Below are positions 61,166 to 62,008 of a stretch of 64,000 nucleotides of DNA, in pieces; the stretch's first letter is position 1, and each line of letters begins with the position of its first letter. This stretch comes from Octopus vulgaris (Eukaryota): contig OX597818.1 of assembly GCA_951406725.2 (NCBI GenBank), positions 124,001-188,000 on the forward strand, read 5' to 3'. Position numbers and translations under genes: made by a program. The notes beneath the pieces are model-generated. The model had not been told where the DNA came from and ran no database searches. It saw only the letters and a list, made by a program, of their open reading frames with translations.

Positions 61166-61466
61166 TATATATATATATATATATATATATATATATAATT
61201 TAGCAATTAAGGACAACTACTTAATAAGGAAAACTTAACAAGAAATTGTCAGGTAGATAGCGTAAAAACCTCATAAGAGAAAAAATTTCGAAAATAATTA
61301 TTTCTTATTGAACATATTAATTTATATATAGAGGGCATTATACATACATGCCAGAAGGCATTATACATACATGCCAAACGCTAAGAGGGACAATTAGTCA
61401 TTTCTACCAAAAATATTACTAATCCCACCGAATGCAATTTTTCAAAGTAAGACATTTAAAAAATAT

Positions 61467-61514
61467 AGACCTGTATCACAGTGATTTCATACTTACGTAC
61501 TCATCAGCAGGCCT
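61467..61514 (-). ncRNA. Type I hammerhead ribozyme (mirror copy)
   Basis: Exact reverse complement of 61664-61711. Confidence 0.85.
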
Positions 61515-61663
61515 GAATGCATTATAAATAAACAACGACCCTGCCCCGCTTAAGTCGATCAGCTAACTGTTCAACATCAACTCACCCATGTGCTTCGTTG
61601 ATGTTGAACAGTTAGCTGATCGACTTAAGCGGGGCAGGGTCGTTGTTTATTTATAATGCATTC

Positions 61664-61711
61664 AGGCCTGCTGATGAGTACGTAAGTATGAAATCACTGT
61701 GATACAGGTCT
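61664..61711 (+). ncRNA. Type I hammerhead ribozyme
   Basis: AGGCCUG-CUGAUGA-GUAC-GUAA-GUAU-GAAA-UCACUGUGA-UA-CAGGUCU: 7-bp stem I, GNRA-capped stem II, quasi-palindromic stem III, AUA cleavage triplet (cut after 61704). Confidence 0.88.
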
Positions 61712-62008
61712 ATATTTTTTAAATGTCTTACTTTGAAAATTGCATTCGGTGGGATTAGTAATATTTTTGGTAGAAATGACTAATTGTCCCTCTTAGCGTT
61801 TGGCATGTATGTATAATGCCTTCTGGCATGTATGTATAATGCCCTCTATATATAAATATATATATATATATATATATATATATATATATATATATATATG
61901 TATGTATGTATGTATGTATGTATATGTATGTATGTATGTATGTATGTATGTATGTATGTATGTATGTATTATGTATGTATGTATGTGTGTGTGTGTATGC
62001 ATATAATT

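Follow-up and report, generated by a model that had tools for sequence, protein, structure and literature searches.

A retrozyme family of Octopus vulgaris with head-to-head insertions bounded by two fixed, unlike ends

A near-perfect hairpin in a (TA)n tract

The window analyzed here is a stretch of 64,000 nucleotides from Octopus vulgaris (GenBank assembly GCA_951406725.2, contig OX597818.1, positions 124,001 to 188,000). Near its right-hand end lie two inverted arms (61320-61581 and 61597-61857; 261 nt) that are fully complementary save for one base in an A-run. The 15-nt loop between them and the (TA)n flanks, of which the left one spans 61166-61197, are as a model's sequence-only reading had described them. 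That reading overlooked, however, that the loop is itself element sequence, as is the tail at 61197-61319, which is present on one side of the hairpin only. The complete insertion comprises a B arm on the minus strand and an A arm on the plus strand that overlap by 3 nt (Table 1). About 15 nt of the A arm are missing from the B arm, and the 120-nt tail of the B arm is missing from the A arm. Each arm holds one ribozyme, without a head-to-tail pair. Because the copy carries no substitution relative to the family majority, the identity of its arms reflects youth.

Two other repeats were observed in the window. A broken transposase C terminus with a probable right terminal repeat (60480-61165), which from its motifs we take to be of the Tc1/mariner type, abuts the left (TA)n; no left terminal repeat for it was found within the 64-kb window. 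In addition, a GC-rich family of 58- to 66-nt tandem repeats, presumably typical of octopod genomes, recurs at 58510-58823, 37765-37962, 36708-36925, and 26442-26589.

Table 1. Features of the inverted copy, in window coordinates
Feature	Position	Strand	Basis or remark
Target microsatellite (TA)n, left part	61166..61196	.	Window sequence
B arm: unit 415-481 + 1-318, outer 3' end at site B	61197..61581	-	385 nt, 100% identity to reference unit
Tail, ~120 nt between sites A and B, B arm only	61197..61319	-
Type I hammerhead, predicted cut after 61474	61467..61514	-	Covariation
Microhomology of 3 nt at head-to-head junction	61579..61581	.
Hairpin loop: unit 400-414, A arm only	61582..61596	+
A arm: unit 397-481 + 1-195, outer 3' end at site A	61579..61857	+	279 nt
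Type I hammerhead, G10.1-U11.1 closing pair, AUA triplet, predicted cut after A61704	61664..61711	+	Covariation
Direct duplication of 23 nt just before site A; mirror at 61330-61376	61801..61847	+	Single in sister family
Right flank, (TA)n then (TATG)n	61858..61994	.

The repeat unit and its hammerhead

The element is an ORF-less tandem unit of about 480 nt (481 nt, 33% GC) with spacings of 479 to 481 nt and no stop-free frame longer than 50 codons. A genome search with a single arm returned 46 matches of 98 to 100% identity, among the best 40 of at least 999 candidates. The 35-nt ribozyme core has 337 exact copies in the genome (2.8 Gb, 227 contigs) compared with none for a reversed-pattern control; the window hairpin is therefore not a product of chance. 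The first 100 of these 337 matches fall into 35 loci, which extrapolates to some 120 to 150 insertions in the genome, and the core was identical in 149 of the 150 copies that were read. Measured against the reference unit, 86 arms show a median divergence of 0.4%. The longest array combines about 31 nearly identical units on a B arm with an inverted A arm of 506 nt (G000:C1:64639300-64655250). The head-to-tail joint and coverage of the unit were also present in contigs of all four public runs examined (none recorded as RNA), a type of data unable to reveal ends, strand, circles, or single-copy junctions.

The two 48-nt hammerheads of the window copy are identical to each other, and the description of each as an intact type I motif with stems I to III and a predicted cut after A61704 was borne out. 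Their characterization as minimal was not: the helices comprise 7, 4, and 4 to 5 bp, whereas the minimal hammerhead of Penelope-like elements (PLEs) has a short helix I, a long helix II, and little or no helix III (PMC4209133). Also overlooked was the closing pair of stem II, which is G10.1-U11.1 and not the highly conserved G-C (PMC4209133). The search of Rfam that had been proposed as a check did not support the motif, with no match of any kind at the gathering score and no hammerhead among the 18 matches at E values up to 10; the microRNA matches obtained reflect the duplex.

The evidence for the ribozyme comes from covariation. A pattern with C at position 11.1 retrieved 24 copies of a sister family of ∼83% identity that differs by two double changes in stem I. 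Across seven aligned variants, 9 of the 21 pairs are altered on both sides and 92% of the cells pair; such double-sided changes affect five of the seven pairs of stem I and three of the four of stem II, and stem III is invariant. The covariation score was reached in none of 500 shuffles, a figure that is not a probability because the sequences are related. Given these compensatory changes across sister families in an element without any other product, ribozyme activity was likely selected in the lineage; for the G-U variant, activity is a prediction. At least four older sister families (∼70 to 85% identity, units of 460 to 485 nt, different stems) were observed at L064, L180, L187, L202, L223, L225, and L106:5400-6400, some with U-U or A-C at 10.1-11.1. 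Hammerhead-like motifs dispersed at four other loci (L175-L178) have stem III as in the family; their remaining stems differ, they do not resemble the unit, and no RT match was found at these four loci.

Folding predictions depend on context. In the isolated motif or arm, stems I and II form with probabilities of 0.72 to 1.0, and stem III of the monomer forms with a probability of 0.02. Two isolated 48-mers are predicted to co-fold into a double hammerhead (−30.5 versus 2 × −12.4 kcal/mol), in line with the earlier suggestion that the ribozymes act as dimers, but the double hammerhead did not recur when a two-unit transcript was folded. When the full hairpin is folded, every pair of the ribozymes has a probability of 0.00 and a duplex of ∼260 bp is predicted, so that read-through RNA would mask both ribozymes, as had been anticipated.

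Every testable sequence feature identifies the element as a non-LTR retrozyme: each unit contains a type I hammerhead, at least two ribozymes follow one another, and the unit is short, low in GC, and noncoding. A target-site duplication, which in non-LTR retrozymes exceeds 4 bp if present, would be concealed here because (TA)n flanks both sides. The earlier view of a young, ORF-less ribozyme retroelement of the Penelope or retrozyme kind, with further genomic copies that share a conserved core and covarying stems, is thus upheld. Like the animal non-LTR retrozymes defined previously (PMC7229834; bioRxiv 10.64898/2026.07.22.740005), the family consists of ORF-less, low-GC tandem units with a type I hammerhead each, ranges from dispersed monomers to long multimers, and shares its genome with PLEs. 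The unit of 480 nt is longer than the 170 to 400 or 150 to 450 nt given in PMC7229834 and lies inside the range of 51 to 972 nt in the preprint. The family differs from animal retrozymes in its G-U closing pair of stem II and in being mostly head-to-head with two fixed ends; the word “inverted” is absent from the main text of PMC7229834 and occurs in the preprint only in a reference title.

Two fixed ends and variable junctions

Fifty-four insertions were compiled from the 35 loci into which the first 100 copies of the core fall and 19 further ones among the best BLAST matches, a sampling that demanded a ribozyme copy. Forty are head-to-head, none is tail-to-tail, and 14 are single-armed; in the coordinate-ordered subset, 24 of 35 loci are inverted. 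The junction of the inversion differs at every locus. Contrary to the sequence-only reading, the hairpin is not the element: with a 480-nt tandem monomer as the unit and a point of inversion that varies per locus, the near-perfect hairpin is one insertion outcome, a by-product rather than a dedicated structure.

Outer ends lie at two fixed sites about 120 nt apart, A (unit ∼195) and B (unit ∼314-319). One of the 40 inverted insertions is cut by the edge of the retrieved stretch, leaving 39 that are complete, of which 36 pair A with B and none pairs A with A or B with B. Thirty-two of these calls were automatic and four (L106, L110, L124, L128) were made by BLAST or from the flank; a motif-based end caller that double-counts B and yields stray matches served only as a cross-check. 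The tail is restricted to one end in the same proportion (36/39). In three insertions (L115, L116, L131) one end is regular and the other odd. The odd ends of L116 and L131 come after stretches similar to site A (unit 133 and 241), which suggests cryptic initiation sites. Among the single-armed copies, 10 end at A and 4 at B, two of the 14 (L117, L127) with a short B stub. Outer ends adjoin (TA)n on both sides, and, judging by eye rather than by tally, sister families of ∼83% and ∼70% identity retain both ends and the (TA)n target. A 24-nt block between A and B that is common to the sister families has 285 exact copies and is possibly a protein-binding element. Arm length varies between 21 nt and 15 kb; the A arm is the longer one in 16 pairs and the B arm in the other 16, and in 10 of these 32 pairs both arms are longer than one unit.

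A 5'-truncated inverted copy joined head-to-head, a tail at one end, and a microsatellite target together match the insertions of PLEs, which have an inverted 5'-truncated copy, a tail of 30 to 40 nt at one end, and a (TA)n bias (PMC8557442, PMC3846280). As judged from its sequence, the element behaves as a non-autonomous PLE, the unit containing no ORF and hence no RT plus GIY-YIG ORF of an autonomous one, and it is very probably a retrozyme whose insertion relied on PLE-type machinery.

The two arms of an insertion are related to each other more closely than to the rest of the family. Within insertions, 34 of 44 recurrent variant sites are common to both arms (10 are discordant), compared with 162 of 3,097 (5%) between insertions (39 insertions); the best of 2,000 permutations scored 15. 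In total, 83 variants are common to all covering segments, 96 are private, and 8 are partly shared, two of the latter occurring once in each arm (L028, L120). The junctions vary in position and are microhomologous. Of 31 resolved junctions, 19 are clean, with a mean microhomology of 2.5 nt compared with 0.76 expected (0/20,000 simulations), and 12 contain extra or variant bases. In 12 of 32 pairs, including that of the window, neither arm lies inside the other; in 11 pairs A lies within B and in 9 B within A. Inner ends are weakly closer than in permuted pairs, with 7 of 32 within 25 nt (P ∼ 0.04) and 13 of 32 within 55 nt (P = 0.02), both thresholds being post hoc. In this sample, for which a ribozyme copy was required, no inner 5' end coincides with the ribozyme cleavage site (unit 42), the nearest being at 39 and 46. 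Taken together, the unlike ends, the variants shared between arms, and the microhomology speak for coordinated priming at two sites on one RNA.

Two-site priming and the Penelope-like machinery

The mechanism that we favor, with a probability of about 0.55 for the whole including a circular template, is that two cDNAs are primed at A and B on one RNA by a PLE reverse transcriptase/endonuclease acting in trans. Arrays would be transcribed, cut by their hammerheads into monomers, and the monomers circularized; a PLE protein would nick both strands of (TA)n, and the 3' ends of the target would prime reverse transcription, one at A and the other at B, aided by TA microhomology of 8 nt at A and about 2 nt at B. 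The cDNAs would extend over variable distances, from about 20 nt to many units, and their 3' ends would anneal over 1 to 6 nt, followed by fill-in. The near-perfect hairpin of the window would arise because its cDNAs stopped 18 unit positions apart. The non-nested pairs (12/32) and the junction microhomology point to two separately primed cDNAs, and the private variants shared by the arms point to one template. Not all observations fit: 10 of 44 sites are discordant between arms, the three insertions with an odd end depart from the rule, the PLE of the anole starts at an equal site on both strands in vitro (PMC11167929), and eight of nine frog retrozymes failed to cleave (bioRxiv 10.64898/2026.07.22.740005).

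As a template, a circle would account most simply both for multi-unit arms with variants in common and for the selection acting on the ribozyme, and circular templates have been proposed for PLEs and retrozymes (PMC4209133, PMC7229834), in PMC4209133 along with the observation of hammerheads close together on opposite strands; a model of the retrozyme life cycle is given in PMC7761336. An uncut linear multimer from a homogeneous array, primed at the same two sites and from the same two ends with the ribozyme dispensable for insertion, fits nearly as well, since a homogeneous source array likewise yields shared variants; we nevertheless regard it as unlikely. The cleavage site devoid of 5' ends is compatible with such a template, as are the weakness of the ribozyme core, whose G-U pair departs from the conserved G-C (PMC4209133) and whose monomeric stem III is unstable, and the eight partly shared variants, particularly the two that occur once per arm. 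Moreover, the anole PLE uses uncut RNA in vitro, inserting it without ribozyme cleavage (PMC11167929). Conversely, the compensatory ribozyme changes across sister families imply selection in an element without other product, and in 10 of 32 pairs each arm can be longer than one unit, one arm reaching 15 kb while being nearly homogeneous.

Fold-back self-priming, in which the copied strand folds and copies itself or an antisense template primes itself (PMC3846280), is improbable. It would account for identical arms, for the 20 of 32 pairs that are nested, and for the 7 of 32 junctions that, like that of the window, are nearly palindromic, and the weak closeness of junction pairs leaves it some room. 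It does not explain the 12 non-nested pairs, nor the window arms, each of which holds sequence missing from the other. The 19 of 32 junction pairs lying more than 55 positions apart also count against it, unless template jumps rescue the model. Still less credible are two independent single-armed insertions in one (TA)n tract followed by gene conversion: single-armed copies do exist (14/54) and (TA)n tracts gather several elements (L106, L122, L202), but chance pairs could not yield 40 of 40 head-to-head and no same-end pairs, an end rule that by itself nearly refutes this explanation, nor would they give junctions that lack TA or an inversion in 24 of 35 coordinate-ordered loci.

The sequence-only reading had suggested that the hairpin could serve as double-stranded RNA, masking the ribozyme and acting as an ADAR or Dicer substrate. 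The predicted read-through duplex would indeed mask both ribozymes, but retention for such a function is very improbable, given a junction that differs at every locus, a window copy without substitutions, and no gene evident in the long reading frames of the window; silencing as a side effect of the hairpin is possible. An assembly or read chimera is a negligible prospect, for although the window junction is absent from the contigs of the public runs (in which single-copy joints are easily missed), a chimera would mirror flanks and ends, which here differ, and 40 loci, as well as sister families, obey one A+B rule. A foldback DNA transposon or MITE is ruled out by the variable junctions and unlike ends.

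Weighing against priming by a trans-acting PLE enzyme, a homologous autonomous partner was not found among the GIY-YIG loci that were read, and the proposed check for linkage of the element to an RT plus GIY-YIG ORF gave no linked match there. A genome scan for GIY-YIG scored 150 matches among 6,136 candidates, and BLAST detected no linked unit-like pLTR at any of the 50 loci that were read (30 with 1.5-kb flanks and 20 of 7 to 8 kb). A truncated Neptune-type piece has a unit-like fragment (76% identity, L038/L105) ∼850 nt upstream, which was not counted as linkage. RT fragments adjoin five retrozyme loci, and (TA)n separates the two in the three whose junctions were read; in a tblastn search of the family loci and the window with a Neptune-type protein, the sole match was such an adjacent, separate fragment.

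The genome does contain a young PLE, represented by L088:744-5960 (G000:C6:133343243-133348459) and L085-L101, with copies 97 to 99.7% identical. Its 781 codons encode RT, a CX4CxxC linker, and GIY-YIG, in this order, and the linker, a motif treated in PMC8557442, was the basis for assigning it to the Neptune clade. The element terminates in (TA)n at two sites spaced about 37 nt, and its inverted copies have unlike ends in both cases read directly (L090, L092), with five more pairs inferred from match coordinates. The unit has no BLAST similarity to this PLE; a 66-nt AT-rich alignment to a Neptune-type pLTR (score 46, compared with at most 38 in 200 shuffles) is not in register with the end sites. 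Thus, by timing and target, the Neptune-type PLE is a candidate mobilizer rather than a demonstrated partner. Two further features of it were observed. A possible hammerhead of the U3-A8 type, recognized by eye at L088:1130-1190 in its pLTR, has a G-U closing pair in stem II and a palindromic stem III; folding of this segment failed to recover a hammerhead. The second feature, in a class of elements described as having a single ORF, is an upstream overlapping frame of 479 codons (L088:1268-2704) that 3 of 17 loci carry at its full length and several others in shorter form; it gave no convincing Pfam match and no PDB sequence match.

Each ingredient of the architecture is already known singly. 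Twin priming of L1 likewise uses two target ends to prime two cDNAs that microhomology joins head-to-head, but its second site is variable and its arms barely overlap, whereas here both sites are fixed and the arms overlap owing to the repeating template. PLEs with the endonuclease (Neptune, Poseidon, Naiad; PMC8557442, PMC3846280) share with this family partial tandems, a 5'-truncated inverted copy, a one-ended tail, a (TA)n target, and a hammerhead in the repeat; the octopus family differs in lacking the RT-GIY-YIG ORF, in its tail of ∼120 nt compared with 30 to 40, and in that both arms can contain several whole units. Non-autonomous PLEs of Chlamys such as MRC1 (PMC8557442) are also derivatives with multicopy head-to-tail insertions, but theirs generally match autonomous 3' ends, and no such partner was found here. 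The closest parallel in vitro is Poseidon of Anolis carolinensis (PMC11167929), in which two internal initiation sites define the tail, both strands of an AT-rich target are nicked and extended, and a dimer is predicted. In the octopus family the sites are separated by ∼120 nt, site A shares 8 nt of TA homology with the target, and genomic copies pair unlike sites strictly, a pairing not reported for the in vitro system. The combination was not found in the literature searched: no retrozyme with this architecture, no 120-nt tail, and no counts of obligate unlike ends, an end rule that subscription papers and supplements outside the search may describe.

Retrozymes have been linked to pLTRs by homology (bioRxiv 10.64898/2026.07.22.740005), and mobilization of their circles by PLEs is a proposal in both that preprint and PMC7229834. 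A tentative reading, to which we give somewhat less than even odds, is that a PLE dimer grips one circular retrozyme RNA at two distinct sites and simultaneously performs rolling-circle reverse transcription from both ends of the break. If true, it would jointly explain the tandem, inverted, and tail structures of Penelope-like insertions and would be direct proof that PLE machinery integrates animal retrozyme circles, which that machinery may recognize by end structure instead of sequence homology. The origin of the tandem and inverted structure of PLEs is called “undefined” in PMC8557442; in this short, very young, and polymorphic family, each insertion is a record of its template, which makes testing direct, and an integration test could draw on the 480-nt unit as substrate and on a candidate enzyme. 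For the octopus, the majority of insertions (24 of 35 coordinate-ordered loci) are long inverted repeats and, if transcribed, a possible source of double-stranded RNA.
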